Positions 15,505 through 36,712 of a stretch of DNA of 64,000 bases are shown here, piece by piece (positions within the stretch are counted from its first letter, which is position 1; every line of letters begins with the position of its first letter). The stretch is taken from NCBI RefSeq assembly GCF_003019035.1, contig NZ_CP027447.1. One strand, given 5' to 3'. The DNA comes from Escherichia coli (GTDB lineage: Bacteria; Pseudomonadota; Gammaproteobacteria; Enterobacterales; Enterobacteriaceae). Below the pieces are notes generated by a model. That model searched no databases and was not told where the DNA came from. It was given only the letters and a program-made list of their open reading frames with translations. The position numbers and the translations under genes were made by a program.

Positions 15505-15506
15505 CG

Positions 15507-18606: not shown

Positions 18607-18607
18607 G

Positions 18608-18946
18608 TCACACCCCGCGCAGGATACGAATGACGTCGCCTTCACCCCCGGCTTCATCAAGTGCAATACCACAGGATTTACCGTCGCCGGACTGCGGCAC
18701 GGCTCTGGCCTGAGCATCTGACTGAACAGCCACACCACGGCTGACCGCAGCACCGGCCTCAACAGCAATAATGCCCAGAACGCTCACCGGCGTGCTGTCG
18801 CCGGTAACAGCATCCACATCGGCAACCCCGAGCGCTGCGGCACCGGCTTTACAGGGGGTATTATCTGCCCCGACAAAACGCTGCTGTGCCAGTTCTGCCC
18901 CTGCCGTTACGGTTGTAATCAGAATGACCTGCTGAGTGGTTCCCAT
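18608..18946 (-). CDS. Hypothetical Gly/Ala-rich head protein
   Basis: 112 aa directly downstream of the major capsid gene. Confidence 0.4.
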   Translation of the reverse strand: MGTTQQVILITTVTAGAELAQQRFVGADNTPCKAGAAALGVADVDAVTGDSTPVSVLGIIAVEAGAAVSRGVAVQSDAQARAVPQSGDGKSCGIALDEAGGEGDVIRILRGV

Positions 18947-18955
18947 AACGCCTCC

Positions 18956-19909: not shown

Positions 19910-19923
19910 GATTTCTCCTTAAA

Positions 19924-21039
19924 TTACAGGCAGCGTGCGACAGCAGCCTCATAGCTGATGCCTTCTTTTTTGGACAGGGCCACTGCTTTCTGATGCAGGG
20001 CCAGACGCTCAGGATCGGCTTCCGCAAACTCCGCCACATCCACCTTCACCGTGTCGCCGACACGCTCTTTTGTGGCCTGTTCGGCGAAATTCATCACCGG
20101 CTCCCCGTCGGAGAGCAATGAACGAAAGGCGGTGGCCAGCGGTGTGCGGCTTTCCCCCTCAGCAAACTCCACCGGCTTGTCGCCACCGGCGACGGCATCC
20201 AGCAGGGCAACCACCACGGAGGAGGCGCGGGGAGCCAGACGGCCCTCTGCGACAAGTTTTTCTGCAAAGGCCACATTGTCCTTATGCAGTTGCTCCTGTC
20301 TGACCTGTGCATCACGCGCATCGCGATCAGCAGCCTGCTGCTTCAGGCGGCGGTTCTCCTCCTGAAGGGCTTCAATCTCTTCTTTTGTCATCGATGATTC
20401 CTCGTTACTTGCGGAAGACGGCCCCGGGCCTGTCTCACTGAATTGGGCACCTGCTGCATCCTGCGACAGTGTGTCGCGGTACGCCTCTTCGCGCAGACTG
20501 TTGAGCTGCCATTCCGGCAGGACTTTTTCTGCCTCGTCCAGACTGAAGCGGGCGATCAGAAAATCGCGCAGCTTTCCCCACAGGGAGGCATTCGTGATGG
20601 CCTGCCAGTCGGCGAACTCCACCACACCTTCTTCCTGCTCACTGAAGGACACCTGTTTCAGCCCCTTGACGGAAGGTGGCTGTGCCCCGAGAAAGCCCAC
20701 ATGGCGCAGGTAGAGCACGCCGGGCTTCGGATTGGACGGTGAATCCGGGAGGTAGAAAGAGGCGGACACTTTTTTGAATCGTCCGTCGGTGACCATCTCA
20801 GCAAACTGCGGGTCCAGCTGGGCAGGCTCTGCCATCAGATCGACGCCGCTGAGCGACAGGGCTTTCACCCAGCCCCACGCCGGGTCTTCCGTTCTGGGAT
20901 GACCAATCACGAGTGGTGCTTCATGGACGGACGGGTCATAGGCTTTCACGCAGGCGGCAAGATCGTCTGGCGTGAACGGCAGTTTTTTGCCGTGCATATC
21001 GGTATGAGTACCGGCTTTAAAAATGTGAATGGCTGACAT
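19924..21039 (-). CDS. Head maturation protease/scaffold (Mu I-like)
   Basis: 371 aa with an acidic, coiled-coil-like middle region; position upstream of the capsid gene. Confidence 0.7.
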   Translation of the reverse strand: MSAIHIFKAGTHTDMHGKKLPFTPDDLAACVKAYDPSVHEAPLVIGHPRTEDPAWGWVKALSLSGVDLMAEPAQLDPQFAEMVTDGRFKKVSASFYLPDSPSNPKPGVLYLRHVGFLGAQPPSVKGLKQVSFSEQEEGVVEFADWQAITNASLWGKLRDFLIARFSLDEAEKVLPEWQLNSLREEAYRDTLSQDAAGAQFSETGPGPSSASNEESSMTKEEIEALQEENRRLKQQAADRDARDAQVRQEQLHKDNVAFAEKLVAEGRLAPRASSVVVALLDAVAGGDKPVEFAEGESRTPLATAFRSLLSDGEPVMNFAEQATKERVGDTVKVDVAEFAEADPERLALHQKAVALSKKEGISYEAAVARCL

Positions 21040-21253
21040 TTTGCTGTCCCGCGTTATGTTGTCGGAGACAGTTTGTGAGAAATGCAGGCCCGGCGATTTT
21101 AATCTGCTTTAGAAAACATCAGGGGAGAAGGACAGGGAAAGCAATGCGGTGAACCGGAAGCGGTTATAAAACAGAGGCTGTAAAGCCTTTATAAAGGTAA
21201 TACAGCCCCTCATTCGCTGGCAATGATAAATCACCCGCCTGAAGAGAGAAAAC

Positions 21254-21712
21254 TCAGCGACGGGCCGCTGATTCAAGATGGCGGACAATGGTATCGAGGA
21301 TGGGGATTACCACTTCAGGCTGTAGTTCTCCATCCCCCGTCACCGGCAGGAACGGGCGGGCCGGAAGTTCAACAGACTCATTACGCCCCGTTTTACCCCC
21401 GAACTGGTGAATGGCACCGTAAACAACGTTGGTCCCCACAACAGCCTGCCGGGCGTCATGGTCGGTTGATACTGACCCCATCAGACGCCCGGTATCCTGC
21501 AGTGTCTGCCCGTCACGTTCTTCCGCTGCCAGCGAGGGCATCCACCCCGGACGCCCCTCATCAAGAAAGTTAAACTGTGTTTCCGCCAGCAGGGTTCCGG
21601 CGATTTTGCGCATCGCGGGCTCCAGGTCTGTGGCAGCAAGATCCAGCGCACGGAGGCTCCGGCGCAGGGATTTATCGTTAATGGTGATACTGACCAGGTT
21701 ATCGGAAGCCAT
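21254..21712 (-). CDS. Virion morphogenesis protein (Mu G-like)
   Basis: 152 aa between the F-like and I-like genes. Confidence 0.6.
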   Translation of the reverse strand: MASDNLVSITINDKSLRRSLRALDLAATDLEPAMRKIAGTLLAETQFNFLDEGRPGWMPSLAAEERDGQTLQDTGRLMGSVSTDHDARQAVVGTNVVYGAIHQFGGKTGRNESVELPARPFLPVTGDGELQPEVVIPILDTIVRHLESAARR

Positions 21713-21714
21713 TG

Positions 21715-22536
21715 TTATCCTCTCAGTTCCTGTTGTGCCAGTGGCTGAAGCGTACCCTGATAGCGGGCCAGGTCGGGACGGTATGCTGCCCCCGGTGCAT
21801 AAGACCAGCCGACGTCGGTGGTCACCTTCGTGGTGCCGGTATTAAAGGTGGCCACGTTCCGCATTTCGCCGGTTTTCTCTGAGACCAGTTTCAGTTCCTG
21901 GCCCATGGCAGAGCCGGAGCTGATAACCTTCAGGCCCCGGGCACGTACATCCGCCGCACTCAGGGCAATCACACTACAGCGGCAGCGCCAGCCGTTCGGC
22001 GGGTAAAATGCCTGCCAGAACGGGTCATCCCAGCGCAGCACCAGACCATGCAGCGCCAGATGGCTCCTGCGGGTATGGCTGTCGTTGATGCCGGTATACA
22101 TCCAGTACGGCCTGTCGTCGACGTTTTCCATCTGCTCCGCCCAACGACCGGCGCTGTAGAGTACGGACATATTGGTGCGAAAGATGGTGTCGAGCCGCCA
22201 CGGGCTGCCCTGCTGAATGGTGACCGGCTCACCCGTTACCGGGTCAGTCGTGTCACGTGGTCCCCACCATCCCTTACGCTTCAGCACCGGCTCCAGCTCC
22301 TGCCGGAACCAGCGATCGGTTTTTCCTTCATCGACAGCCTGCTGCAGTGCCCCGCGAATATCTTCCAGAATATCCAGGCGGGTCACTTTAGCGACGGTAA
22401 AGGCGCGGGCATGGGCTTCCTGCCACATTTCTTCCCAGTCCCAGGTAATCTGATACCCTTTGGACTTCAGGTAACTGACTGCCCGCTTCGGGGGAAGCGT
22501 CATGCAGTACGCCAGTTCAGCCGTTGTCACGCTCAT
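21715..22536 (-). CDS. Minor head / head morphogenesis protein (Mu F-like)
   Basis: ATG at 22534-22536 (MSVTTAEL...) overlapping the portal gene end. Confidence 0.65.
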   Translation of the reverse strand: MSVTTAELAYCMTLPPKRAVSYLKSKGYQITWDWEEMWQEAHARAFTVAKVTRLDILEDIRGALQQAVDEGKTDRWFRQELEPVLKRKGWWGPRDTTDPVTGEPVTIQQGSPWRLDTIFRTNMSVLYSAGRWAEQMENVDDRPYWMYTGINDSHTRRSHLALHGLVLRWDDPFWQAFYPPNGWRCRCSVIALSAADVRARGLKVISSGSAMGQELKLVSEKTGEMRNVATFNTGTTKVTTDVGWSYAPGAAYRPDLARYQGTLQPLAQQELRG

Positions 22537-24013
22537 GCAGACGCCCCCGGATATTTGCCACAAAGAGAATGCGGGCCAGCCGCTCCTGCAGATCGTCCGT
22601 GTTCATCTGAGGGTAGAGCTCCGCCAGTTCGCCCAGCAGCTCAGACGGGTTAACCCCGTTTTCGACCCGCTTAAACAGAGGTGCCAGGACGGGTTCCAGC
22701 GTGCCATTTAACACACCTCCGTTCATCAGAATGTCCAGTGCGTCGTCAAGCTGCTGTTGAGCCTGAATATCGGCATCAATCGCCTCGGCAAATGACAGCG
22801 GCAGCATGTTCTTCTCGCGTTCTGACGGTGGTGTCTCGTCAATATCGCCGTCCTGCAGCTGGTACTCACGCTTGAAGTATTGCGGGGTCAGACGCAGACC
22901 CGCCCGGGTGAGTTTTTCGTCGCGGGTGGCACGGGTGTCATCAATGGCCTCCTGTTCCCACATGGCCCAGACCGGACACGGCACATCGCCGAAGTTCAGG
23001 GTGACCACCGTTCTTATGACCTGATTCACTGCCGCCTGAATGATGTCCGCATCCGCATCGCGGATATCAGCCGTCACCTCCAGCCCGGCCTGTGCAGAGG
23101 CCTTGTTACTGTTCGCTTCCGTGGTCTGATTCTGACCGAGTAATGCAATGGAGATCTCACTGCGTGACAGTGTGATCAGCTCGCGGAATACCTCGCTGCT
23201 GTCCGCCTTGCCATCCGCTGCTTTGAGTTCGATACTGCTGTCATCGGGGATGGCGGCCACCGCGTCCTCCACCATCTGCTCCATGGAGTCCAGCAGTTTT
23301 TCAATCTCTGCATCATTTGCACCCCTCGGGTGCTTACCGATCACCCACGGGGAGCCAAACTTTTCGGCAAAGCGGAGCCAGAATTTCATCCCGCCTTTCT
23401 TGAAGGCGACCGGCCAGAAGCACATGGACAGGTCCGGGAAACCGTAAGGATTGTCATAGGATGCATCCTGTGCCGGCACCACGAATTTTGACGGTGACAG
23501 CAGCTCACCCTCCACACCCGCATCACGCGCCCGGAAGCGCAGGCAGTTGTCCGTATCAAACTGGAACCACTCAGGTGGTTTGCCGACAATATCCGTCACC
23601 GCCCACGCCCTGACCGAACGGCCCCACATGATTTCACAGGGCTGATACCCGTAGAGCACGGCATCGCTCATCTCACCGATGATGCGGGACAGATCCAGAT
23701 CGTCGAGCATGTCGCGGATGAAACGGAAGACCCGGGCAGAAGCGTGACCGCGCTCCAGTCCACGCTCCAGCGATTTGAGCGCTGCTTTACGTCTGCGGAT
23801 ACAGCCCCCGACCAGCGGGTCGGTGCGCAGTTCGCGGTAGATACGGATATCCCGTCCCTGAGCCTTGAGAATGGGATCAGGATTGGGCAGATACATGCCC
23901 AGTCCGTAAAAGTCGATCGCGCGGCTGCGGGAGGCAATCTGCGCGGTCAGTGATTTCTGAGGCTCAGAAAAAGCAACAAATTCATCGGGTGAAACCCAGA
24001 TACCCCTCGCCAT
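22517..24013 (-). CDS. Portal protein (Mu H/gp29-like)
   Basis: 498 aa; its ATG overlaps the terminase stop (ATGA). Confidence 0.8.
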   Translation of the reverse strand: MARGIWVSPDEFVAFSEPQKSLTAQIASRSRAIDFYGLGMYLPNPDPILKAQGRDIRIYRELRTDPLVGGCIRRRKAALKSLERGLERGHASARVFRFIRDMLDDLDLSRIIGEMSDAVLYGYQPCEIMWGRSVRAWAVTDIVGKPPEWFQFDTDNCLRFRARDAGVEGELLSPSKFVVPAQDASYDNPYGFPDLSMCFWPVAFKKGGMKFWLRFAEKFGSPWVIGKHPRGANDAEIEKLLDSMEQMVEDAVAAIPDDSSIELKAADGKADSSEVFRELITLSRSEISIALLGQNQTTEANSNKASAQAGLEVTADIRDADADIIQAAVNQVIRTVVTLNFGDVPCPVWAMWEQEAIDDTRATRDEKLTRAGLRLTPQYFKREYQLQDGDIDETPPSEREKNMLPLSFAEAIDADIQAQQQLDDALDILMNGGVLNGTLEPVLAPLFKRVENGVNPSELLGELAELYPQMNTDDLQERLARILFVANIRGRLHERDNG

Positions 24014-25329
24014 CAGAATCCCTCCAGTATATGACCAGCCTCACGGCGGTGACGCGAACGGGCCATCACCGGCCCTGACGGTCCGTCAGTGGCGTTTATT
24101 GCCAGAAAACAGGCCCATGTGCGGTCGGCGTGACCTGCTGCATCACTTTCGGCCACAAAGCGGGGAGTTCCGGTAGGCCCGGTAACCTTGCGAAGTTTAT
24201 GCAGATCACTGCGCAGGACCACATCTCCCGCCGGAATACGCAGGCGGCGGTCCTCAAACATCTCCCTGCCACGGGTCGCGAGGGTGAGCTTGTTCGGGCT
24301 GTTAAATATCACCCCCTCCACACGGCTTCTGCCATGGCGACCCTGTGCATCCTCCACCGGCTTTTCTCCCATCCCGGTCTGATCCATACAGCAGCGCAGC
24401 ACGCGGTAACGGAAAAATACGTCATCCAGCAAAGCATCCTGCTCAGCAAAGGTGGCCCGTTTACGGGTGATGATTTCCCGGGTCCAGTAGACATCCCCCA
24501 CCTGTTCAAGCACCCAGATGACAAACAGGTCATTACGAACAGCAATATCCACCCCCACAAAGCAGGGGCCACCCGTATAGTGCACCGGCAGCCCGGCAGC
24601 ATCGTGCTCCACGCCGTCAATCAGTTCAAACGTCAGCCAGGCCGATGCCTCATCCAGCCACTTCAGTTCAAACTCCTGTGCCCAGGCGTCATCATCGTTG
24701 AGCGCCTGTCGCATCTGTGCAATATCCCGCGGCAGACCATCACGCACGGCACGGTAAATATCCACGATGTGACGTGACCAGACATTTTCAAGGGCGTTGC
24801 TGGTCATCAGTTCATAAAACTTGTTTCCCTTGCCGTTCGGTGTCGATGTCACACGCAGTCTGTAGCCGTTGGAAATGACCGGAAACAGAGCGGTCCAGAT
24901 TTTGCGACTGTCGGCATGGAAGGCGAACTCATCCAGAAAGACGTTAGCCGCAAACCCACGAGCCGTGTCGGGATTCGCCGGCAGGGCCGTGATACGGGAG
25001 CCGCCGGGTAACTCCACCTCAAGCATGGTGTAGCGTTCGCCGCTTTCAGCACGGTAATAACTTTCCACCTCACGGGCCGCCATCCGGTAGGCGCTGCAGT
25101 GTTTTTTCACCCCCTCCACCATGGCTTCTTTTGCCTGACGCTCCCCGCGCGAGAGGATCACCCAGCGTGTACGTCCCCCTGAGGCCTCCGTTTCAAAACA
25201 GTCATCAACCAGTTCCAGCGTGGTGGTGAACGTCTTGCCCGTCTGACGGGCAAACATACCAATCTTGAAACGGGCACGATCCAGAAACCACGACTGCTGA
25301 TAGGGATACAGCTGAATGGCCGCTGTCAT
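24013..25329 (-). CDS. Terminase large subunit (Mu gp28-like)
   Basis: 438 aa with an N-terminal ATPase motif (ARQTGKTF) and C-terminal nuclease-like acidic residues. Confidence 0.8.
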   Translation of the reverse strand: MTAAIQLYPYQQSWFLDRARFKIGMFARQTGKTFTTTLELVDDCFETEASGGRTRWVILSRGERQAKEAMVEGVKKHCSAYRMAAREVESYYRAESGERYTMLEVELPGGSRITALPANPDTARGFAANVFLDEFAFHADSRKIWTALFPVISNGYRLRVTSTPNGKGNKFYELMTSNALENVWSRHIVDIYRAVRDGLPRDIAQMRQALNDDDAWAQEFELKWLDEASAWLTFELIDGVEHDAAGLPVHYTGGPCFVGVDIAVRNDLFVIWVLEQVGDVYWTREIITRKRATFAEQDALLDDVFFRYRVLRCCMDQTGMGEKPVEDAQGRHGRSRVEGVIFNSPNKLTLATRGREMFEDRRLRIPAGDVVLRSDLHKLRKVTGPTGTPRFVAESDAAGHADRTWACFLAINATDGPSGPVMARSRHRREAGHILEGF

Positions 25330-25880
25330 GAGATCACCCCGTAAATCTGTTCCCGCACCATCTTCAGGGTTTCCAGACTCAGGCGGGTGTCGCCGGACTT
25401 CGCCTGTTTTTCCAGAGCATTCATCCGCGCCTCAATTTTTGCCAGCACCTCGGCCCGGAATCGCTTGTGGGTCACCGAAGCCCGTACCAGTGTGGCTATA
25501 CTTTCCGAAGCAGTGGCCAGCAGTTTTGCGCGTTTTGCAGGATCATCACTTTCCCCGATTTCCTGCAGACGCATCAGAACATCCAGCATCTCGGTCTGAA
25601 TCAGTGCCATCATCCCGGCAGAACGATCGTCCGCCTCGTCACCGGCTTCCTGCGCCATCAGACGCGCGGCCTCGGTGGCGGCGCGGATGCGGGCCAGTTG
25701 TCGCTCCATTTTGTAGCCAAACCGCTGCAGGGAAGAGCGGGTGATGACGTATCCCTTCTCCTTCAGCAGGGCTTCCAGCCGGGCATATCCACTGAAGTTA
25801 TTCTCCGTCAGTGCCCGCTCCAGCCAGCGGCGGACCTCCGTCGGCAGAGAATCAATGCTGCTGCGACGTCCCATAATCAC
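25326..25880 (-). CDS. Putative terminase small subunit (Mu gp27-like)
   Basis: 184 aa, helical, immediately upstream of the large subunit. Confidence 0.55.
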   Translation of the reverse strand: MIMGRRSSIDSLPTEVRRWLERALTENNFSGYARLEALLKEKGYVITRSSLQRFGYKMERQLARIRAATEAARLMAQEAGDEADDRSAGMMALIQTEMLDVLMRLQEIGESDDPAKRAKLLATASESIATLVRASVTHKRFRAEVLAKIEARMNALEKQAKSGDTRLSLETLKMVREQIYGVIS

Positions 25881-26188
25881 TCACTCCAGTATTTTTCCGG
25901 GCGGGCAATACCCGGGCCGCATTCCACGGTGTATTCCACAATATCCACACCAAGGCGACTCAGATCGGCAAACCAGTCACCGGACGGTCTCTTCTCCAGC
26001 TCCACCATTTTGCGATCTGCCAGATAATCAAGCTCCCGGCGCAGCTCCAGTTGCGTGGTGTCCGGGTAGATGGCACGGGACACGTCCAGCAGCAACGTTT
26101 CGCTGGCGGTGTAAGGGCGGGTTTTGTTCAGGGCAACCAGCAGACTCCAGCGCAGGGATTCGCGGCGTACCCGGGTAATATCGACCAT
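25877..26188 (-). CDS. Hypothetical protein (Mu gp26-like position)
   Basis: 103-aa ORF in operon overlap with neighbours. Confidence 0.4.
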   Translation of the reverse strand: MVDITRVRRESLRWSLLVALNKTRPYTASETLLLDVSRAIYPDTTQLELRRELDYLADRKMVELEKRPSGDWFADLSRLGVDIVEYTVECGPGIARPEKYWSE

Positions 26189-26514
26189 TATTGACCTCCG
26201 GTATTGCGGTACTGCTGTACCACTTCCAGTTTGTTGTAAAGTGCGTCCAGTTTGGCCTCGATGACTGTCTGGCCACGGATATAATCCTCGCGACGGACAT
26301 AATTCAGCGGTAAATCCGCTTTAAATCGCATAAATTCCTTTTCCAGCTCGCCCCAGTTGGAGGCGGACTGTTGCAGGGCCTGTTCAAGGGAGGCGAATCG
26401 TGCCGCCTGGCGTTCTTCTGTTTTACTGAACAACCATTTGGCGAGCCCTCCAACAAACCCCATGAAGGTGAGCAGAAAACTCACCACCGTCCAGAATTCA
26501 ACCTGCAGTGTCAT
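26188..26514 (-). CDS. Hypothetical membrane protein (Mu gp25-like position)
   Basis: 108 aa with an N-terminal TM helix and coiled-coil tail. Confidence 0.4.
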   Translation of the reverse strand: MTLQVEFWTVVSFLLTFMGFVGGLAKWLFSKTEERQAARFASLEQALQQSASNWGELEKEFMRFKADLPLNYVRREDYIRGQTVIEAKLDALYNKLEVVQQYRNTGGQ

Positions 26515-27164
26515 TTCTGTAATCCTTCCCGTTCATCCAGCAGCGCGTTTATCTGGTTTCGCCAGCGACGACATTGCCCTGCGTTGTCGATGATGTTGGC
26601 GAGGACGTCACGCTGGGAGACACCCGAATTGCGTAACCGGGCGTCAGCGGTTTCAGGTTGCCCGGTCGCTGCGCCAGTGCCGGTGCCAGCGGCGGCAGTT
26701 GCGTCTGAATGACCGGTGTCGACGGATGCGTTGTCATACCCGAGTGCGGCGTTGTACTGGCGCACGAAACCGCGAGTAAACACGCACTCAATGGGATGGC
26801 TCTTACCTTTTTCATCAATCCAGCGCTGTGTGACATCGTTAATTTGCCCCTGTAGTTGTTTGTTCAGGCTCTCCAGTTGAGCAATCTGCTCAAGATAACC
26901 GGCTTCAGCCCGCTGCCCGGCGGCCACCTGCTCCTGATACCGTTTTGCCCATGCTCGCAACGCAGCGTTCTCAAGCATTGCCTGCTCCGTTTTGTATGTG
27001 TCGAATGCTGACTGCAACTCACTGATCGCCTTATCGCCGTCGCGCGTGGCGTTTTCATGCCCGCTTTTGTAGCCCAGGTAATAAAGTCCAATCAGAAAAG
27101 CATTTATGAGCACAGCCAGCAGCAGACTGCGCCACGGCAGATTTTTTAGCAGGTTAGTCCACAC
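26511..27164 (-). CDS. Inner-membrane spanin (Rz-like)
   Basis: 217 aa, N-terminal TM helix then coiled coil; directly downstream of the endolysin. Confidence 0.6.
   Translation of the reverse strand: MWTNLLKNLPWRSLLLAVLINAFLIGLYYLGYKSGHENATRDGDKAISELQSAFDTYKTEQAMLENAALRAWAKRYQEQVAAGQRAEAGYLEQIAQLESLNKQLQGQINDVTQRWIDEKGKSHPIECVFTRGFVRQYNAALGYDNASVDTGHSDATAAAGTGTGAATGQPETADARLRNSGVSQRDVLANIIDNAGQCRRWRNQINALLDEREGLQK
26549..26815 (-). CDS. Outer-membrane lipoprotein spanin (Rz1-like), fully embedded in the Rz-like gene
   Basis: Alternative-frame ORF MKKVRAIPLSAC... with lipobox LSAC and a proline-rich mature part. Confidence 0.5.
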   Translation of the reverse strand: MKKVRAIPLSACLLAVSCASTTPHSGMTTHPSTPVIQTQLPPLAPALAQRPGNLKPLTPGYAIRVSPSVTSSPTSSTTQGNVVAGETR

Positions 27165-27882
27165 AGCTGCCGCCCCCCCATGTCAGATAACGGGGGGCCA
27201 GTTCGTGCAGGATGCGCTGCGGATAATGGCGGTTCTCCCGCCAGCTGGCAGCATTGCGTCCGGCATTCACCGTGGCGACATGCCCGAACCAGCGGGTACT
27301 GTCCAGGCCTTTCTGTGATGCTAGCTGCCTGTCCCGTTGTACCCAGCCCAGACCACCGTTATAGCCCGACAGTGTCATGGCCATACGTTCGCAGTCACTG
27401 GCGGCGCTGACGCGCTGCCACAGCCAGCGGTCATAGCTGACCAGCGCCCGGATGGCCCATGCCGGATTAAACGGCTCACGGCTGTTAAGCCCCGGCATCA
27501 GCTGACTTATCCAGTCAGCAGTGGCGGGCATGAACTGCGCCAGTCCCTGAGCGCCAGCCGGCGAGACCGCATCAGGTCGCCAGCCGCTTTCCTGATGCAG
27601 TTGCGCAGCGAAATCGGCCACCGGCGCAGACAGTCCCCATTCAAGCCGGGCATTACGGATCACATCATCGCGATACTGCAGCGCAGCCTGCGGAGGCTGC
27701 GCTGCGCGGGCCTGACTGAAGAAGCCGCCACACCAGAGCAGCCAGACAATCACCAGGTTGCCAGCAAGCTGCCACCAGAAGCTGTATTTATCGTTACGTG
27801 GTTCTCCGTGTCTGATGGCGGTTACGCCCAGACCAAAGGCGAACAGAATAATGAGGGTGATTTGAGGCCAGTTCATGGTCAC
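27154..27882 (-). CDS. Endolysin, SLT-type lytic transglycosylase with N-terminal signal-anchor
   Basis: 242 aa; hydrophobic N-terminus followed by ...LHQESGWRPDAVSPAGAQGLAQFMPATADW... Confidence 0.8.
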   Translation of the reverse strand: MTMNWPQITLIILFAFGLGVTAIRHGEPRNDKYSFWWQLAGNLVIVWLLWCGGFFSQARAAQPPQAALQYRDDVIRNARLEWGLSAPVADFAAQLHQESGWRPDAVSPAGAQGLAQFMPATADWISQLMPGLNSREPFNPAWAIRALVSYDRWLWQRVSAASDCERMAMTLSGYNGGLGWVQRDRQLASQKGLDSTRWFGHVATVNAGRNAASWRENRHYPQRILHELAPRYLTWGGGSCVD

Positions 27883-28229
27883 AGTCCTGTTGCCACAGCC
27901 AGACAGACCGCTGCAACAATCAGTGCACGGCGGATTAACGCAGCAGAAAATACAAGGTGAAGGCCGGTCTGCACAGGGAAACGCCCTTCAGCCATCAGCC
28001 TGTCTTCATGTTTCAGGTACTGACCGGGACGGGCTTTGGGGAAGAGTGAACGGTCAAGCCAGTAACCCAGCACTGCTGCCAGCGTGATGAGTGCCAGCTT
28101 GTAGATCACAACAGGCAGCTGCTGTGGCGAGACCAGAGCGATGGTGCCCAGCAACAGCACTGAGGTCAGCAGCCAGCCGCTGAGGCGAGGTTTTTTAACA
28201 GGGGGAATGAATTTTTTCAGGTTTTTCAT
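27879..28229 (-). CDS. Putative holin (3 TM segments)
   Basis: ATG at 28227-28229 preceded by AAGGAG (MKNLKKFIPP...); three hydrophobic helices; first gene of the lysis cassette. The track ORF begins at an upstream GTG. Confidence 0.5.
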   Translation of the reverse strand: MKNLKKFIPPVKKPRLSGWLLTSVLLLGTIALVSPQQLPVVIYKLALITLAAVLGYWLDRSLFPKARPGQYLKHEDRLMAEGRFPVQTGLHLVFSAALIRRALIVAAVCLAVATGL

Positions 28230-28359
28230 GTGTGTCTCCTTGTCTGGTGGAGACAGCATCACAAATACAGGGCGCGAAGGATTTTAAAGCGCGTTAAGAG
28301 AGCCGGGGATACGGGATGTGCAGGATAAACGATGAATTATTCACAGAGGAGAATACGAT

Positions 28360-28785
28360 ATGACGCAGACACTGAATCCGGTCATCACTGTCACCGTGTC
28401 CGGTCCTGTGGGCAGCGGTAAAAGTTACGTACTGGCGCGGATAGAAGAGATGGTGAAACAGGAACCCGGAAACAGCGTCATTGTCGATGCTGCTGACGTG
28501 GAGAATGAGCGCCGTATGAGTGGGGATGATCTGAGCACATGGCAGAAACCACAGGCAGGTACAATTATCCGACTGGAAGAATACACTGAGCGGGTAACTC
28601 TATCATATAGTGAGGAGCGCATTTGCCTGACGAATGCACTGCTGGAAGTTATATGTCCCGAAGGCAAGAGCCCCTGGATACTACCCGATGCTGTACATGC
28701 CGCAATTGCTGCATTGTTCGTATTATACGATCAGGAGCTGGTTTTAATGGAGTTATGTAAGGTTATTAAAGCTACAGAAAAGTAA
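28360..28785 (+). CDS. Hypothetical small P-loop protein (Walker A GPVGSGKS), orphan accessory gene
   Basis: 141-aa ORF with GAGGAG RBS; Walker A at residues 15-22; divergent from the late operon; no family recognised. Confidence 0.6.
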   Translation: MTQTLNPVITVTVSGPVGSGKSYVLARIEEMVKQEPGNSVIVDAADVENERRMSGDDLSTWQKPQAGTIIRLEEYTERVTLSYSEERICLTNALLEVICPEGKSPWILPDAVHAAIAALFVLYDQELVLMELCKVIKATEK

Positions 28786-28860
28786 AAATATTATCGGTAT
28801 CCTGTGGATGATAAAAACACGCTACCCACAGGATTACTTGTATAAAACCGTGGATAACAA

Positions 28861-29382
28861 CTAGATAAAACCATCATAGAAGTCATCCCTCTTACGAGAC
28901 CTGATACGAACTGGATTTGGCTCTCCTTTCAACCATACAGCACTGTTTTGACCACAAACCGGACACATGCAAAAACTGTCTTTTCGTATATGCAGGATAC
29001 TTTTCAGGTTTTTGGAATCAAAACAAGTCTGGCAAATATAATGTTCAGTTTCATCGTTTCCCGTATAACGATAAGCATAGAAGCCTTTTTCTTCACTCAG
29101 TAACGTCAGTTTATAATTACCGCGAAAGTTAAGAAGGTCTTCCAGAGAGCGAATTTTCTCTTCCAGATTGGTAATGGTTTTTTGCTGTTCTCCTAGCTTG
29201 CTCGTTACCTCAAAGAACTGCCCCTGTGCTTCAATAATTTTACTCTGTAATTCACTGGTCAAAGCGGCCTGTTTTATTTGATCACGCTCTTTTATTATTT
29301 TCTGAGCAGTACTGCTGATATAGCCAAGAGCTGTTAATAAAGCGTTTGTATCCATAGCACCCCGATATCCTCTAAACCACAT
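28861..29382 (-). CDS. Hypothetical coiled-coil protein with C-terminal zinc-ribbon (CxxC...CxCxxC), orphan accessory gene
   Basis: 173 aa (or 164 aa from the second ATG at 29355); heptad-like N-terminal half; C-terminal YICQTC...CMCPVCG; visibly AT-rich DNA. Confidence 0.55.
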   Translation of the reverse strand: MWFRGYRGAMDTNALLTALGYISSTAQKIIKERDQIKQAALTSELQSKIIEAQGQFFEVTSKLGEQQKTITNLEEKIRSLEDLLNFRGNYKLTLLSEEKGFYAYRYTGNDETEHYICQTCFDSKNLKSILHIRKDSFCMCPVCGQNSAVWLKGEPNPVRIRSRKRDDFYDGFI

Positions 29383-29422
29383 TAACAGAAATCACTTCAT
29401 CCCTGCCGCATCATGAAAGAAC

Positions 29423-29454
29423 GACCAGCCCGGCACCCGAAAGCCGGGCTGGTC
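29423..29454. other. Perfect 12-bp GC-rich stem-loop in the divergent intergenic region
   Basis: GACCAGCCCGGC-acccgaaa-GCCGGGCTGGTC between the 173-aa gene start and the methyltransferase gene. Confidence 0.5.
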
Positions 29455-29557
29455 ATCGTCCCACAGGAATGCACTGTGAGCCGACCGAGGTTCAGTCAGT
29501 CTCGCGAGACCAGACTAGCCTGCCATATTTTTAATAATTGTAAAAGGCTTACAGATT

Positions 29558-30322
29558 ATGAAAATGCAGTCATTACCCATCGTTCCATGGATTGGTGGCA
29601 AACGCCGCCTTGCAAAACACATTCTGCCGCTGTTTCCGGCGCATGAATGTTATGTGGAGCCGTTTTGTGGGGCAGCAGCGCTCTATTTTCTTAAGACACC
29701 CGGCAAGATCGAAGTCATTAATGATATCAACGGTGAACTGGTGAATCTGTACCGGGTGGTAAAGCATCACCTGGAAGAATTTGTCCACCAGTTCAAATGG
29801 GCGCTGGTCAGCCGTCAGATCTACAAGTGGCTGCAGATCACCCCGGAAGAAACACTGACGGATATCCAGCGTGCAGCACGGTTCTACTACCTCCAGAAGC
29901 AGGCGTTTGGCGGCAAGGTAGCAGAACACAGCTTCGGTACCTCCACCACATCCCCGCCACGCTTCAACCTGCTGCGTATTGAAGAAGAACTGTCAGCGGC
30001 ACACCTGCGACTTTCCAGAACAGTCATAGAACACATGGACTGGCAACAGTGCATTGAGCGCTATGATCGTCCGCACACGCTGTTCTACTGTGATCCGCCG
30101 TATCTGGGTACGGAAGGCTATGGTGTGGATTTTCCTGAAGGGAACTACTCGCGGCTGGCAGAGCTGGCCCGGTGCATCAGAGGAAAAATGATAATTTCGG
30201 TGAACGACATCCCGCAGATGCGCGAGGTGTTCACTGGACTGAACATACAGACAGTGAATATCAACTACAGTCTGGCGGGGAAACCCACGCCGCGCCGTGA
30301 ACTGATAATCTGCAACTTCTGA
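29558..30322 (+). CDS. DNA adenine methyltransferase, Dam-like
   Basis: 254 aa with the N-terminal AdoMet-binding region (FCGAAALYF) and the catalytic DPPY motif (YCDPPYLG). Confidence 0.85.
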   Translation: MKMQSLPIVPWIGGKRRLAKHILPLFPAHECYVEPFCGAAALYFLKTPGKIEVINDINGELVNLYRVVKHHLEEFVHQFKWALVSRQIYKWLQITPEETLTDIQRAARFYYLQKQAFGGKVAEHSFGTSTTSPPRFNLLRIEEELSAAHLRLSRTVIEHMDWQQCIERYDRPHTLFYCDPPYLGTEGYGVDFPEGNYSRLAELARCIRGKMIISVNDIPQMREVFTGLNIQTVNINYSLAGKPTPRRELIICNF

Positions 30323-30329
30323 AACAGAA

Positions 30330-30352
30330 CCGGAAAGCACAATGCTTTCCGG
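30330..30352. terminator. Hairpin between the convergent methyltransferase and repressor genes
   Basis: CCGGAAAGCA-caa-TGCTTTCCGG, 10-bp perfect stem, 8 bp after the methyltransferase stop. Confidence 0.45.
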
Positions 30353-30438
30353 TAAATCAGCCCATTCCTGCCATGCTACTGACGGCGCTTTCTGAAAGCG
30401 TCCAGATCAACCACCTGTCCTTTGTGTCCGGGTCAGAA

Positions 30439-30816
30439 TCAGCCTGTAAATTTACTTGGTTTGGGTTGAGTATAGAATCGCCCAACCTCAAGAAATGAGC
30501 GTCGTTGTTCCGGAGTCATTTCATCAAATGCGTCCATTAATTTTTGTTTTTCTGGTGACATTTTTGGGACAACATTGGTCATTACATCCCCTCTCTGTCC
30601 TGTAACAACGTAAAGCACGTCAAGCCCTAAAGTAGCCCAAATTGCCAAAGCATCTGCTCCGGGAGCGGATTCATCCTTTTCCCACCGCAATTGGCTTTTA
30701 TAGGATGCCCCCACCAATTCAGCAAACTCAGACTGACTAAATCCTAGGCGGTTTCGTTCTTCTTTTAATCGTGAGCCAAGTGACATTTTTGTCCAATACC
30801 TATTTACATGTCCCAT
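30439..30816 (-). CDS. Phage repressor, XRE-family HTH
   Basis: 125 aa with HTH LGFSQSEFAELVGASYKSQLRWEKDE; divergent from the early operon. Confidence 0.7.
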   Translation of the reverse strand: MGHVNRYWTKMSLGSRLKEERNRLGFSQSEFAELVGASYKSQLRWEKDESAPGADALAIWATLGLDVLYVVTGQRGDVMTNVVPKMSPEKQKLMDAFDEMTPEQRRSFLEVGRFYTQPKPSKFTG

Positions 30817-30878
30817 TTTTGGGATAATAATCTAACATATATAGAGCAAACATCATTGCGTTAATAAAGGAGGCAACA

Positions 30879-31067
30879 ATGACTGCAGAGCAGGTCAAAG
30901 CCCATTTCCGCCGCAACGGAATCACCTTTACCCAGTGGGCAAAACAGAACAACTACACCCGAGCAGAGGTTTACCGCGTACTGAATGGACAGGTAAAAGC
31001 GAACTATGGCAAAGCCCATGAAATCGCCGTCAAGCTGGGATTAAAAACCATCACTGACGCCGCTTAA
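30879..31067 (+). CDS. Small DNA-binding early regulator (Ner/Cro-like by position)
   Basis: 62 aa, strong RBS AAGGAGG; first gene of the early operon, divergent from the repressor. Confidence 0.5.
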   Translation: MTAEQVKAHFRRNGITFTQWAKQNNYTRAEVYRVLNGQVKANYGKAHEIAVKLGLKTITDAA

Positions 31068-31113
31068 AAAGATACAGCATGCGAAAAAGATTATCACATA
31101 TTGAAAAAGAGGT

Positions 31114-31428
31114 ATGCAGATGAGTAAGACGAATGTTTCAAGCTCCGGCAGTCGTATCCTCCGGGTACTCAAAGCGCTGCGCGGTCATGCCCTGAACGGT
31201 ATTTCCAACGGTGAACTGGCAGCAGCACTGCACGAGTCACCGGCAAACATCAACCGGGCACTCAACACCCTCATTGAAGAAGGGCTGGCCCTGAAACTGG
31301 AGAATGGACGTTTTGCTCCTGGCATCCAGTTACTGCAGATCGCCATGGCTCACAGTAACGAGATGGCACGAGCGCAGGATCGTATTAACGAAATCAACCA
31401 ACGTGTCATTTCAGGTAGTCGTTTGTAA
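31114..31428 (+). CDS. Winged-helix (IclR-type HTH-like) DNA-binding protein
   Basis: 104 aa; RILRVLKALRGHALNGISNGELAAALHESPANINRALNTLIEEGLA pattern. Confidence 0.45.
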   Translation: MQMSKTNVSSSGSRILRVLKALRGHALNGISNGELAAALHESPANINRALNTLIEEGLALKLENGRFAPGIQLLQIAMAHSNEMARAQDRINEINQRVISGSRL

Positions 31429-31438
31429 GGAGTAATCA

Positions 31439-32350
31439 ATGGGACGCACTAAATCACCAATGACCACAGATCTGAATGCTGAGGTGCCGCTTTCTGATGA
31501 TCTCAACGTCAGCCTGAATACCATGACACAGCATCGTATGGAGATCATGCAGCAGTTCGGCGACGGCCTGCCCTATGAACGTAATCGCATCGTTCACGAA
31601 GCTCGGTTTTATATGGACCAGAGTGCGGAGGCTATGCTGGAGGCAGGTAAACGTTTGGTTATCCTGAAGGAAAATGAACCTCATGGAGAATACGTACAAA
31701 TCGTCAAAGAACAGTTGAACCTTGAGCCACGCATAGCCCAAAAAATGGCCCAAGCTGCTCTGAAGTTTTTATCTCCAGAGCTGACATCAAAAGCGAAAAC
31801 GTTTTCGCATTTGGGAAGATCAAAACTGTACGAATTGATGTTAGAGGATGATGAAGACCTTGCCGAACTGGCCGACGGTGGCACAGTTGCCGGCCTGACG
31901 CTTGACGACGTTGATCGCATGTCAGTACGTGAATTGCGTCAGTCTCTTCGCGAAGCCCGCGAAACCAACGCAGCACAACAGCGCGTACTCGCCGACAAAA
32001 ATGAAAAAATAGACTCACTCTCCACCAGACTGGAGAAGAAATCCCGTATTCAGCCGCCTGAGCCTGATGAGGAGGTTAAGAAGCTGCGGGCGGAAGTGAC
32101 AGCATTAGCGGTTGAGGCGGAATCTGCCATCGCCGTTCGATTGTCCAGCGCTTTTGAGACGCTGTGTGCATATTGTGCTGAAAACATGATTGATACCCCC
32201 AGAGACTTCATGGCAGGCCTGGTCTGTCAACTGGAAAGCACAGCGCGTAGCCTGCGCTCCACATTTGACCTGCCGGACGAGCCAACAGGCAATGCAGCGC
32301 CTTCATGGCTGACTGAGCCGACGCCACAGATTAACGGGCTGGAGGCATAA
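31439..32350 (+). CDS. Hypothetical early protein
   Basis: 303 aa, helical/acidic, RBS TAAGGAG; immediately upstream of the transposase. Confidence 0.45.
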   Translation: MGRTKSPMTTDLNAEVPLSDDLNVSLNTMTQHRMEIMQQFGDGLPYERNRIVHEARFYMDQSAEAMLEAGKRLVILKENEPHGEYVQIVKEQLNLEPRIAQKMAQAALKFLSPELTSKAKTFSHLGRSKLYELMLEDDEDLAELADGGTVAGLTLDDVDRMSVRELRQSLREARETNAAQQRVLADKNEKIDSLSTRLEKKSRIQPPEPDEEVKKLRAEVTALAVEAESAIAVRLSSAFETLCAYCAENMIDTPRDFMAGLVCQLESTARSLRSTFDLPDEPTGNAAPSWLTEPTPQINGLEA

Positions 32351-32353
32351 CCA

Positions 32354-34135
32354 ATGAATGCTGCCCTGACTGAACGACTGGTTTATGTCGCCCGCGCGGC
32401 ACGTGACGCGGGGCATGGTAAACGCGGTGCAATATACGACGCTGCCTGTGCTGAACTTGGCATGTCCCGCGCCACTCTGCTGCGCAGGCTGAAGGAGGTC
32501 TCTGTGACTGATAAACGCAAAAAACGCGCCGATGCCGGGCGCAGCGCTCTGACCCGCGACGAAGCCGCGCTGATATCTGCCACACTGCGTGAGGCCACCC
32601 GCAAGAACGGTAAGCGTCTCTATTCCATCGCAGATGCAGTGGAAACCCTGCGGGCTAACGGCTTTATCTCCGCAGGCAGAACAGATGAAACCACCGGTGA
32701 GTTTTTCCCGTTGTCCGAAGATGCCATCAGTCGTGCCCTGCGTAACTATGGCCTGCACCCGGAACAACTGGATGCCCCTGCACCGCATACCGAAGTGGCC
32801 AGTCTGCATCCCAATCATGTCTGGCAGATTGACGCCTCACTCTGCACGCTTTACTACCTGAGCAATGGACATAAAGGGCTGCAGGTGATGGACAGCGCGA
32901 AGTTCTACAAGAACAAGCCCGCTAACCTTGCCCGTATCGCCAGTGACCGCGTGTGGAGTTACGAGATTACCGACCATGCCAGCGGCTGGATTTACGTTGA
33001 GTATGTGACGGGCGCGGAATCCGGTGAGAACCTGTGTTCTGTGCTTATCAACGCCATGCAGGAGCGCGGTGGCGCAGACGTGCTGCACGGCGTGCCGAAA
33101 ATACTCTATCTCGACCCTGGCTCGGCAAACACCGCGGGTATGACGAAAAACATGTGCCGCTCACTGGGCATCGACCTGATAGCGCACAGGCCGCATAACG
33201 CCCGCGCCACCGGACAGGTGGAAAAGGCGCGTGACATTATCGAACGCAAGCTGGAGCCGGGTCTGAAGTTCCGGCCGGTTCACAGTCTGGAAGAACTCAA
33301 CGCGCTGGCCGCGAAATGGCGCAGCCACTTTAACGCCACGGCTGTTCACAGCCGCCACGGTAAAACCCGCACGGATATCTGGCTGAAGATTACTGCTGAG
33401 CAGCTGAAAAAAGCGCCTTCCGTTGAAGTATGCCGTGAACTGGCTGTGGCGACACCAGAACTCCGCAAAGTCACGCCAAAACTTCGTGTCTCGTTCCGGG
33501 GCACTGAATTTGACGTATCAACGGTACCGGGCGTACTGGTTGGTGAAAAACTGATGATTACCCGTAACCCATGGCGCAGCGATGTGGCACAGGTGGTTCT
33601 GACCGGTGAGGACGGCCACGAGACGTTCTTCCTGGTCGAAGAGGTCAGAAAGAACGAGTTTGGCTTTGCTGAAGGCGCGGCGGTATTTGGCGAAAGTTAC
33701 AAAGCCCTGCCGGAAACCCCGGCACAGATGGCGGCAAAAGAAACCGAAGCGCTGGTTACCGGTACAGACAACGCCGCAGATGCAGCCGCCGCACGCAAGG
33801 CGAAGGCGCTGCCGTTCGGCGGGCGGCTTGACCCGTATAAACATATCGACGACACCACACTTCCGGCCTATATGCCGAAGCGTGGTCAGGCCTCTGACGT
33901 ACGCGGGCCGCGCACTGAACAACGTCCCATGACTCATGTGGAGGCCGCGAAAGCCCTGCGCGATAAGTTCAGCGCCGACGGCCTTACCTGGACGCCGGAA
34001 CATTACCGCCAGTTAACGGCACAGTACCCGGACGGCGTACCGGAAGCTGCACTGGATGAAGTCATGGCCACGCTGACCACGCCGGCCCGCAGCAGCGTTA
34101 TCAGCAGCGTTATCAGCATTGTTAACGGCAACTGA
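32354..34135 (+). CDS. DDE transposase (integrase catalytic core; functional analogue of Mu A)
   Basis: 593 aa; candidate catalytic region HVWQIDAS...YLDPGSANTAG; followed by the transposition ATPase gene. Confidence 0.8.
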   Translation: MNAALTERLVYVARAARDAGHGKRGAIYDAACAELGMSRATLLRRLKEVSVTDKRKKRADAGRSALTRDEAALISATLREATRKNGKRLYSIADAVETLRANGFISAGRTDETTGEFFPLSEDAISRALRNYGLHPEQLDAPAPHTEVASLHPNHVWQIDASLCTLYYLSNGHKGLQVMDSAKFYKNKPANLARIASDRVWSYEITDHASGWIYVEYVTGAESGENLCSVLINAMQERGGADVLHGVPKILYLDPGSANTAGMTKNMCRSLGIDLIAHRPHNARATGQVEKARDIIERKLEPGLKFRPVHSLEELNALAAKWRSHFNATAVHSRHGKTRTDIWLKITAEQLKKAPSVEVCRELAVATPELRKVTPKLRVSFRGTEFDVSTVPGVLVGEKLMITRNPWRSDVAQVVLTGEDGHETFFLVEEVRKNEFGFAEGAAVFGESYKALPETPAQMAAKETEALVTGTDNAADAAAARKAKALPFGGRLDPYKHIDDTTLPAYMPKRGQASDVRGPRTEQRPMTHVEAAKALRDKFSADGLTWTPEHYRQLTAQYPDGVPEAALDEVMATLTTPARSSVISSVISIVNGN

Positions 34136-34145
34136 GGAGGAAAAC

Positions 34146-35312: not shown

Positions 35313-35314
35313 TA

Positions 35315-35584: not shown

Positions 35585-35611
35585 TCAGCACAACTGGAGA
35601 AATCATAAAAT

Positions 35612-36703: not shown

Positions 36704-36712
36704 GGGCGCGGC

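Follow-up and report, generated by a model that had tools for sequence, protein, structure and literature searches.

A probable embedded spanin pair of the BcepMu/B3 type in the lysis cassette of a Mu-like Escherichia coli prophage

Does a single stretch of prophage DNA encode both subunits of a two-component spanin in two overlapping reading frames? The question is raised by a locus in a window of 64,000 nucleotides from the E. coli contig NZ_CP027447.1, where positions are counted from the first letter of the window. The host element is a Mu-like prophage of ~37 kb in the E. coli chromosome, and the 10-bp repeat TCAAATCAAT flanks the insert. An original prediction, made from the sequence alone, held that the gene for a 217-aa protein encloses a second gene for a proline-rich Rz1-type lipoprotein and that the pair completes a lysis cassette, which we find in 637 of 5,426 complete E. 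coli genomes. From the gene anatomy, its conservation, the selection seen in both frames, and the homology and synteny reported here, we conclude that the element is very probably an embedded two-component spanin of the BcepMu/B3 type that would serve as the last step of the prophage lysis cassette (Table 1).

Table 1. Positions of the spanin genes, their predicted features and the neighboring genes of the lysis cassette
Feature	Position	Strand	Remarks
108-aa membrane protein	26188..26514	minus	directly downstream of the spanins; BcepMu gp25 53% identity, E 3e-35; PHROG 462
i-spanin (Rz-like)	26511..27164	minus	217 aa; GTG start; run of G 5′ of the start
Embedded o-spanin (Rz1-like) gene, +1 frame	26549..26836	minus	TAA stop 26549..26551
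Predicted lipid-modified cysteine	26762..26764	minus	Cys25 from the MSHS start, Cys18 from the MKK start; LLAVS↓C, box AVSC, then Ala
Predicted lipoprotein signal peptide	26765..26836	minus	MSHSAGLMKKVRAIPLSACLLAVS; 12 uncharged residues before Cys25, PS00013-type pattern matched
Cysteine of the original prediction (Cys19 from the MSHS start)	26780..26782	minus	box LSAC; probably inside the hydrophobic core of the signal peptide
i-spanin N-terminal transmembrane segment	27072..27128	minus	residues 13-31, SLLLAVLINAFLIGLYYLG
Endolysin, SLT lytic transglycosylase	27154..27882	minus	PF01464 SLT E 1.4e-14; PHROG 669 endolysin E 5.7e-70; PHROG 5479 on residues 3-56
Holin	27879..28229	minus	116 aa from ATG 28229; PF13272 Holin_2-3 E 1.5e-40; PHROG 1528 E 1e-53, residues 12-127

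The product of the outer gene is predicted to be a full-length Rz-like i-spanin. It matched PHROG 1403 'Rz-like spanin' with an E of 8.1e-88, residues 1-217 aligning with positions 1-212 of the 212-position profile, and other Rz-like PHROGs matched it weakly. The sole 19-residue Kyte-Doolittle peak above 1.6 (value 2.03) falls on residues 13-31, giving the protein a single N-terminal transmembrane segment that lies within helix 11-119 of an AlphaFold model. DSSP analysis of this model, which is of modest quality (mean pLDDT 64, pTM 0.28), assigned a helix to residues 11-119, coil to residues 120-183 (pLDDT 33-46) and a second helix to residues 184-216, so that the modeled periplasmic domain has two helical regions and a flexible linker. 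Cys127 and Cys198 are invariant in 43/43 relatives, and through them the complex would have at least one periplasmic cysteine for intermolecular disulfides.

The +1 ORF that was originally placed in this 217-aa gene (26511..27164) is borne out by the sequence, lies entirely within the outer gene and ends at 26549. From the ATG at 26815, which was the start originally chosen, it encodes 88 aa beginning MKKVRAIPLSAC, and its phase follows from 27164 − 26815 = 349, where 349 mod 3 = 1. From a second ATG at 26836 it encodes 95 aa beginning MSHSAGLMKKVR. The predicted start homologous to that of BcepMu gp24 is the upstream ATG at 26836, and the mature o-spanin is identical from either start. Shine-Dalgarno sequences are poor at both candidates, with AGGGG 10 nt away from 26836 and only GGA 3 nt away from 26815. 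In the embedded architecture, the o-spanin gene lies wholly in the i-spanin gene in another frame, starting at ~0.4-0.5 of its length (L) and ending at 0.9-1 L (PMC6139136). We found that the nested ORF starts at nt 329 (0.50 L) or nt 350 (0.53 L) and ends at nt 616 of 654 (0.94 L), with 38 nt between its stop and the end of the i-spanin gene.

Database searches with the nested protein returned little. No Pfam, PHROG or NCBIfam model matched it, and no full-length copy was found among 5.8 billion protein clusters, where the search recovered only chimeric or truncated products and one Salmonella homologue. A tblastn search of 50,697 phage records matched only three near-identical phages, and the o-spanin is absent from every annotation inspected, namely those of KP12, PhiKM and RefSeq E. 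coli A20.

To ask if the nested frame behaves as a gene, we compared 43 unique relatives with i-spanin identity down to 69%, of which 42 are gap-free in the nested region; one locus (L060) was dropped from all statistics because the gene model forced on it did not stay in register (29% identity). All 43 relatives retain both ATGs, and the nested TAA is at the same place in 42/43. None of the 42 gap-free relatives has an internal stop and all 42 keep both cysteines of the nested product, so the ORF shows the conservation in relatives on which the original prediction had staked itself. The other four alternative frames have stops in 40-42 of the 43 sequences, leaving the nested +1 frame as the sole stop-free alternative.

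Length was a poor guide. Synonymous recoding of the outer gene that respected local codon usage produced a +1 ORF of ≥88 codons in 8.5% of trials, and many relatives have a +1 frame that stays open from one end of the gene to the other. Because of these two results, ORF length alone is weak evidence, and it was rejected as an argument for the nested gene. A lipoprotein-type signal appeared in the +1 ORF in 0.8% of recodings, and the signal together with a long ORF in 0.4%.

The substitution pattern was far more informative. Changes synonymous in Rz occur at 146/210 possible sites upstream of the nested ORF (70%) vs 49/201 sites inside it (24%; OR 7.1, p 2e-20), where this and the following p-values overstate independence because the 43 sequences are related by descent. 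Rz-nonsynonymous changes inside the nested ORF are seen at 23% when silent in +1 vs 9% when not (nominal p 4e-7), and the corresponding values upstream of the nested ORF are 31% vs 27% (nominal p 0.24). Across Rz codons 141-180, the most variable position is Rz codon position 1, which is the wobble position of the +1 frame. The o-spanin core (residues 25-68) has a mean pairwise identity of 0.917, compared with 0.802 for Rz on the same DNA, and the o-spanin tail has 0.73, compared with 0.905 for Rz. Purifying selection is thus evident on both frames in this set of phylogenetically related sequences. The in-phase antisense frame has the same wobble position as the +1 frame, and we considered an antisense gene as the source of the shifted wobble. 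That candidate was rejected: the antisense frame scores an OR of 2.6 but contains ~3 stops per sequence in 42/43 relatives.

If the nested ORF were not a gene, its open frame would have to result from G+C-rich composition and from constraint on Rz alone. A +1 frame is easily open in a G+C-rich gene, as the recodings and the relatives with a gene-wide open frame illustrate, and the lack of a database family or annotation and the weak ribosome-binding sites of the nested ORF point the same way. Constraint on Rz alone, however, can account neither for Rz-synonymous variation that falls threefold over precisely the span of the nested ORF nor for the wobble shift in codons 141-180. Nor would it be expected that the +1 product is conserved better than Rz over the linker, that +1-frame protein similarity remains recognizable in BcepMu and B3 although Rz identity is ~30%, or that a lipoprotein-type signal so rare among the recodings is present. 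We regard this explanation as extremely improbable and, on sequence grounds, consider the comparative evidence decisive for a nested gene.

The nested product was originally assigned a signal peptide with a lipobox, and here the prediction held in part. A lipoprotein signal was found with a rule-based, PS00013-type pattern, and lambda Rz1, run through it as a positive control, gave Cys20. The signal is recognized at Cys25, which is preceded by an n-region with K/R and an uncharged core of 12 residues, as for a signal peptidase II substrate. The cysteine of the LSAC box to which the signal had been attributed fails the pattern from either start, and the cysteine of the AVSC box passes. Cys25 is invariant in 42/42 gap-free relatives and is followed in all 42 by Ala and not Asp, a residue that agrees with outer-membrane sorting.

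Processing at the first cysteine would instead yield a 77-aa mature protein beginning CLLAVSCASTTP. LSAC matches the consensus [LVI][ASTVI][GAS]C perfectly and AVSC does not; the first cysteine is invariant in 42/42 relatives, where its box reads LSAC in 40, LIAC once and LTAC once, all of them canonical, and a cysteine occupies this position in BcepMu and the Salmonella homologue as well. This invariance, however, can be put down to the Rz frame, whose conservation over the same DNA is 99%, and the uncharged stretch between the last charged residue and the first cysteine is only 6 residues long, less than a signal-peptide core requires. In B3 nothing corresponds to the first cysteine: the B3 signal peptide contains one cysteine only, and BLASTP pairs B3 Cys27 with Cys25 and not with Cys19. 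Kongari et al. tabulated signal lengths of 28 aa for BcepMu and 26 aa for B3 (PMC6139136), and their signal and mature lengths put the lipidated cysteine at BcepMu Cys29 and B3 Cys27. BcepMu Cys29 lies one column from Cys25 in a MAFFT alignment, so the published pairs favor the later position. We consider cleavage before the first cysteine quite improbable, and the predicted lipid-modified cysteine is more probably the second one.

With Cys25 as the first residue, the mature product has the proline-rich composition originally claimed, with Pro at 11/71 residues (15%) and at 9/44 (20%) in the conserved core, yet it is less rich in Pro than lambda Rz1. It is predicted to have no cysteine beyond the lipidated one.

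Homology connects both frames with known spanin pairs. In the Burkholderia phage BcepMu (NC_005882), the gene order gp21-gp28 is the same as in the E. coli prophage, running from holin, SLT endolysin and Rz with nested Rz1 to the gp25-like membrane protein, gp26, TerS (gp27) and TerL. The BcepMu nested gene likewise uses the +1 frame, with its end 38 nt short of that of the outer gene (Table S4, PMC6139136). BLASTP aligned the i-spanin with BcepMu gp23 (Rz; E 6e-10, identity ~28-31%) and the nested protein with gp24, annotated 'Rz1, out of frame, embedded proline-rich protein' (E 8e-6, identity 35-38%), and the second match is not fully independent of the first because the two frames share DNA. 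The i-spanin is 217 aa here and 199 aa in BcepMu, with a longer Gly/Thr/Ala linker here, and the endolysin has two N-terminal hydrophobic segments here and one in BcepMu.

The Pseudomonas phages B3, JBD18, JBD25 and JBD67 (Kongari et al. 2018, PMC6139136) have i-spanins of ~30-35% identity over nearly the full length. A tblastn search with the i-spanin against B3-like phages gave 30-33% identity over 90-97% of the query with E down to 3e-8, and the lineage motifs CVFT.GFVR..N.A.G and SGV...D.LA are shared. The B3 homologue of the i-spanin is ORF27. BLASTP matched the nested protein to the B3 +1 ORF, the o-spanin, with an E of 9e-7 and with the lipobox cysteines aligned; both proteins have C-A-[ST]-[ST]-T-P after the lipobox cysteine and a later PAL.QRPG motif. 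In the B3/JBD family the nested start lies at ~0.5 of the outer gene length, as here, and the 38-nt end offset recurs in JBD25 (PMC6139136). Unlike here, the nested frame passes the i-spanin stop by 7 nt in B3, JBD18 and JBD67, and B3 has an extra small gene, ORF26, between endolysin and Rz. The Salmonella homologue of the o-spanin (54% identity) is also nested in an Rz-like ORF. In frame, position and homology, the locus agrees with the embedded pairs of the BcepMu/B3 family, and it has the 38-nt offset of BcepMu and JBD25, although the pairs of BcepMu and B3 were likewise annotated by bioinformatics. An Rz1-type lipoprotein gene inside an Rz-like gene is supported by the family matches, by the dual-coding statistics and by homology and synteny with BcepMu Rz/Rz1.

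The experimentally characterized prototype is lambda Rz/Rz1, in which Rz1 is embedded in the +1 frame of Rz, as here (PMC6139136). The lambda pair consists of a type II inner-membrane subunit with two helical regions and a linker and a short Pro-rich outer-membrane lipoprotein (PMC6139136), and the spanin pair is the last lysis-cassette element in lambda and in the prophage. No sequence similarity to lambda Rz/Rz1 was detected. Rz has 153 aa and mature Rz1 has 40 aa, 25% Pro and a functionally important Cys29, compared with 217 aa for the i-spanin and 71 aa, 15% Pro and no second cysteine for the o-spanin here.

The cassette was originally described as a holin, a signal-anchored transglycosylase and a spanin. 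All of these parts are present: endolysin and holin lie immediately upstream of the spanin gene on the same strand, and the end of the endolysin gene overlaps the i-spanin start by 11 nt. The description of the anchor did not survive, since hydropathy shows two hydrophobic segments at the endolysin N-terminus and not a single signal anchor, as aligned with the BcepMu, B3, D14K and Salmonella enzymes. The mechanical ORF of the holin extends to a GTG at 28262, the protein has three hydrophobic peaks and its gene has 351 nt in the annotations of KP12 and E. coli A20.

Taken as an embedded spanin pair, the locus would work as follows. The 217-aa product would be the inner-membrane subunit, with one N-terminal transmembrane segment, after which a long periplasmic helix and a second, C-terminal helix would flank a disordered linker. 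Translation of the same DNA from the internal +1 start would give a lipoprotein precursor of ~95 aa, to be lipidated at the LLAVS↓C cysteine and cut by signal peptidase II. Because the residue after the lipidated cysteine is Ala and not Asp, the lipoprotein is expected to be sorted to the outer membrane, leaving a 71-aa o-spanin rich in Pro, Ser and Thr. By analogy with lambda Rz/Rz1, we infer that the subunits would form a complex joined through their C-terminal parts and spanning the periplasm. After removal of the cell wall by the holin and the SLT transglycosylase, the complex would destroy the outer membrane, probably through fusion of the two membranes.

The nested ORF could also encode an outer-membrane lipoprotein with another role, such as superinfection exclusion, that is not the partner of the enclosing protein. 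Such a role would fit a mature protein that, unlike its BcepMu, B3 and Salmonella homologues, has no second periplasmic cysteine. It is hard to reconcile with a site inside an Rz-like gene beside holin and endolysin, the defining arrangement of embedded spanins, or with a frame, a relative position (0.50-0.94 of i-spanin length) and a homology that match catalogued embedded pairs. Nothing else in the cassette stood out as a candidate for disrupting the outer membrane, and we give this alternative almost no credence next to an embedded spanin.

A lysis cluster of another transposable phage offers a comparison for the gene downstream of the spanins. In Mu, gp23/gp23.1 and the releasin gp25 (Chamblee et al. 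2022, PMC9239132) form a cluster whose out-of-frame o-spanin was initially unannotated, and a small membrane protein with an N-terminal anchor comes after the spanins and immediately ahead of gp26 and gp27, as here. The Mu o-spanin overlaps its i-spanin gene and is not embedded; Mu also lacks a holin, and its endolysin is a SAR protein of the muramidase type. The 108-aa protein of the prophage has one N-terminal hydrophobic segment and a putative role in lysis. We considered it as a DUF2730 releasin homologue and rejected this, finding no BLASTP, Pfam or hhalign support. It gave no match to PF10805 at E ≤ 10, a model that Mu gp25 (2.5e-13) and the D14K protein (4.6e-9) do match, and against Mu gp25 it gave no BLASTP alignment and an hhalign probability of 0.4%, so that only position and N-terminal anchor are common to the two proteins. 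The two-segment module fused to the endolysin is a separate small gene in Pseudomonas phage D14K. A lysis pathway of five parts instead of four, in which this module tethers the SLT endolysin to the inner membrane and the 108-aa protein acts as a releasin-like factor before the spanins, seems doubtful to us. If true, it would add a second, unrelated family with releasin function, in a phage equipped with a holin as well.

The nested o-spanin is a previously unannotated gene of an already known spanin type, and knowledge of spanins is unchanged by this real but ordinary example of a two-part spanin. Its main value is for annotation: the o-spanin is routinely missed by genome annotations, and with the pair recorded, the lysis cassette is complete for a common Mu-like prophage family of E. 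coli, Klebsiella and Salmonella. The family is also a clean natural example of constraint shared by two overlapping frames. Over the disordered linker of the i-spanin, the o-spanin core is the better conserved product, and the C-terminal helix of the i-spanin dominates over the o-spanin tail. In existing annotations, the enclosing gene is labeled 'hypothetical protein' or, wrongly, 'putative lipoprotein'.

The nested ORF lies wholly within the outer gene, which has a GTG start, in the +1 frame relative to it. It ends at 26549 and has two ATG codons, one at 26815, the MKK start of the original prediction, giving 88 aa, and one upstream at 26836 (MSHSAGLMKK...), giving 95 aa. That prediction had called an Rz1-type lipoprotein ORF inside an Rz-like spanin gene, and its coordinates, strand, frame and quoted peptide were all right when checked on the sequence. 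The length of the nested ORF is by itself unpersuasive evidence: when the outer protein was fixed and its codons were resampled according to local usage, 8.5% of recoding trials produced a +1 ORF of 88 codons or longer, and the +1 frame is open over the whole gene in many relatives. A lipoprotein-type signal appeared in 0.8% of trials, and together with a long +1 ORF in 0.4%.

The comparison drew on 58 related loci in viral contigs, with i-spanin identities of 69-98%, and on GenBank and RefSeq hits; with one mis-registered locus excluded, these came to 43 unique gene sequences. Both nested ATGs were kept in all 43 and the nested TAA stop at the identical position in 42/43; in the 42 sequences gap-free in the nested region, the two cysteines and the Ala following the second are always retained and no internal stop occurs. 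The other four alternative frames had stops in 40-42 of the 43. Upstream of the nested ORF, 70% of possible sites showed outer-frame synonymous changes, as against 24% within it (OR 7.1, p 2e-20). Inside the nested ORF, outer-protein-altering changes were seen more often when silent in +1 (23% vs 9%, p 4e-7), a preference that did not extend upstream (31% vs 27%, p 0.24). These p-values overstate independence, as the sequences are related, and the contrasts are large and internal to one gene. Across outer codons 141-180 the most variable position is position 1, the wobble position of the +1 frame. The in-phase antisense frame has the same wobble position and correlates too, but carries about three stops per sequence. 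We conclude that the substitution patterns show selection acting on the +1 frame. One related locus, L061 (IMGVR_UViG_2898975184_000011), has an in-frame stop at i-spanin codon 201 (between CRI and RSQ) with the nested ORF intact; decay of this prophage copy or a sequencing error may account for the stop.

The o-spanin signal peptide (residues 1-24, mean pairwise identity 0.97) shares its DNA with the end of the first Rz helix and the invariant HPIECVFTRGFVRQYNAALG motif (0.99), the conserved core (25-68, 0.917) with the disordered linker (0.802), and the Ser/Thr-rich tail (69-95, 0.73) with the C-terminal helix (0.905). Because the core/linker and tail/helix identities contrast, constraint on each frame falls where the other tolerates change, in agreement with what Kongari et al. 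2018 (PMC6139136) discuss for embedded spanins. An AlphaFold model of the i-spanin (16-sequence alignment, mean pLDDT 64) has a helix at 11-119, which includes the sole hydrophobic segment (13-31), a low-confidence stretch at 120-183 and a helix at 184-216; this predicted layout is that expected of an i-spanin. Residues 1-45 (27030..27164 -), comprising the membrane segment and juxtamembrane part, are far more variable among relatives than the remaining protein and fall into a few distinct sequence types; sequence comparison suggests that the 5′ end of the i-spanin gene is exchanged as a mosaic.

The predicted embedded lipoprotein stood, whereas the choice of the LSAC cysteine (Cys19 from the upstream ATG) as the lipidated residue did not. 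The LSAC box is canonical, yet just six uncharged residues precede its cysteine, so that it fails a PS00013-type pattern from either start, and it is without counterpart in Pseudomonas phage B3. The later cysteine, Cys25 (LLAVS/C), is preceded by an uncharged core of 12 residues and fits the pattern; the identical script selects the known Cys20 of lambda Rz1. BLASTP aligns Cys25 with B3 Cys27, with C-A-[ST]-[ST]-T-P next in both, and the signal lengths of 26 aa (B3) and 28 aa (Burkholderia phage BcepMu) given by Kongari et al. (PMC6139136) place the lipidated cysteine at the later position. The start of BcepMu gp24 (MSRANTARRRMR) aligns with the ATG at 26836, and the predicted mature protein is identical from either start (71 aa, CASTTP...ETR), with 15% Pro overall, 20% Pro in the core and 45% Pro+Ser+Thr.

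The pair lies in a Mu-like transposable prophage of ~37.3 kb, with the 10-bp repeat TCAAATCAAT at both junctions and an empty site, 100% identical, in strain SCU-301. The phage records closest to it, at 88-94% DNA identity, are Klebsiella phage KP12, Escherichia phage PhiKM (placed in Bcepmuvirus) and Phi06_2974 B. The 2.2-kb lysis region is present in 637 of 5,426 complete E. coli genomes. The holin mechanical ORF has a GTG start and 127 aa; its more likely start, judging from family profiles and from homologues annotated at 351 nt, is the internal ATG at 28229 (116 aa).

Genes and boundaries of the prophage and its lysis region
Feature	Coordinates	Strand	Models	Position or content
E. coli core chromosome, left flank	1..3004			anmK, pdxH, tyrS, mliC
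Prophage insert	3005..40268 (approximate ends)			between mliC and slyB side
E. coli core chromosome, right flank	40269..end			slyB, sodC, ydh genes
Holin	27879..28262 (mechanical ORF)	-	PF13272, PHROG 1528	from ~28.2 kb downwards
SLT transglycosylase endolysin	27154..27882	-	PF01464, PHROG 669	
Outer gene (217 aa)	26511..27164	-		third in lysis order, after endolysin
108-aa membrane protein	26188..26514	-		next after 217-aa gene
gp26-like protein		-		after 108-aa membrane protein
Mu gp27-type small terminase		-	PF11985	after gp26-like protein
Large terminase, Mu-type portal		-		after small terminase

BcepMu (NC_005882) is annotated in the same order, with holin gp21, endolysin gp22, Rz gp23, gp24, gp25, gp26, TerS and TerL, and its gp24 is described as 'Rz1, out of frame, embedded proline-rich protein'. 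Pairwise comparison with BcepMu gave E values of 6e-10 (i-spanin), 8e-6 (o-spanin) and 3e-35 (gp25-like protein). In BcepMu and Pseudomonas phage JBD25 the o-spanin is in +1 and ends 38 nt before the i-spanin end (Kongari et al. Table S4, PMC6139136), exactly the offset in the window (26549 - 26511 = 38). The i-spanins of B3-type Pseudomonas phages are 30-35% identical to that of the window, and a Salmonella relative has a 54% identical o-spanin likewise nested in an Rz-like ORF. Because gene order, homology, frame and the 38-nt offset match, the pair belongs to a catalogued embedded-spanin lineage. It differs from its relatives in a longer i-spanin linker, a different endolysin N-terminus and an o-spanin missing their extra periplasmic cysteine; the invariant cysteines C127 and C198 remain in its i-spanin. 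Selection on the +1 frame, BcepMu/B3 homology and gene order thus bear out the embedded-spanin call, the cysteine apart, and by analogy the pair is a putative functional counterpart of lambda Rz/Rz1. At locus L068 (4001..4252; Salmonella enterica GCA_006394535.1) the usual error is reversed: the gene caller picked up the nested o-spanin (83 aa) and overlooked the Rz-like ORF around it.

The sequence analysis shows the anatomy, the conservation, the dual coding and the homology; the working of the pair we infer from the lambda paradigm (PMC6139136) and standard lipoprotein biogenesis. Translation of the o-spanin would start inside Rz, Cys25 would be lipidated and the signal cut off by signal peptidase II. 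Because Ala, not Asp, is next to the lipidated cysteine, Lol would sort the protein to the outer membrane, and it would pair with the i-spanin across the periplasm. Once holin and transglycosylase had removed the murein, the spanin complex would collapse and disrupt the outer membrane.

The first ~56 codons of the endolysin encode two hydrophobic segments, not one signal anchor, and match PHROG 5479 (E 1.6e-13). In Pseudomonas phage D14K, whose endolysin carries its own signal, the sequence that aligns with this module is a gene of its own (52 aa, 'phage lysis protein'). Both here and in B3 the module is fused in-frame to the endolysin; it is absent from BcepMu and the Salmonella relative. The 108-aa protein encoded after the spanins has a single N-terminal membrane segment, 53% identity to BcepMu gp25 and the invariant motif YVRREDY..Q.VIEAKLD; the PHROG 462 label 'lipoprotein' is unsupported by its sequence. 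It sits where Mu has its releasin gp25 (DUF2730), and the protein in the equivalent slot of D14K is DUF2730, to which BLASTP, Pfam and hhalign found no similarity.

The nested gene is missing from the annotations of KP12, PhiKM and RefSeq E. coli A20, where the outer gene is labelled 'putative lipoprotein' or 'hypothetical protein'. The nested protein matched no Pfam, PHROG or NCBIfam model, and a search of 5.8 billion protein clusters returned chimeras and fragments only. We conclude that the nested element is real and ordinary in kind: it belongs to a known family and had not been annotated before. Database proteins that match the nested ORF (P0001 and P0003-P0007) are chimeras in which the +1-frame peptide is fused to sequence read in the Rz or gp27 frame, a pattern suggestive of deletions or frameshifts, either in degraded prophages or in assemblies.
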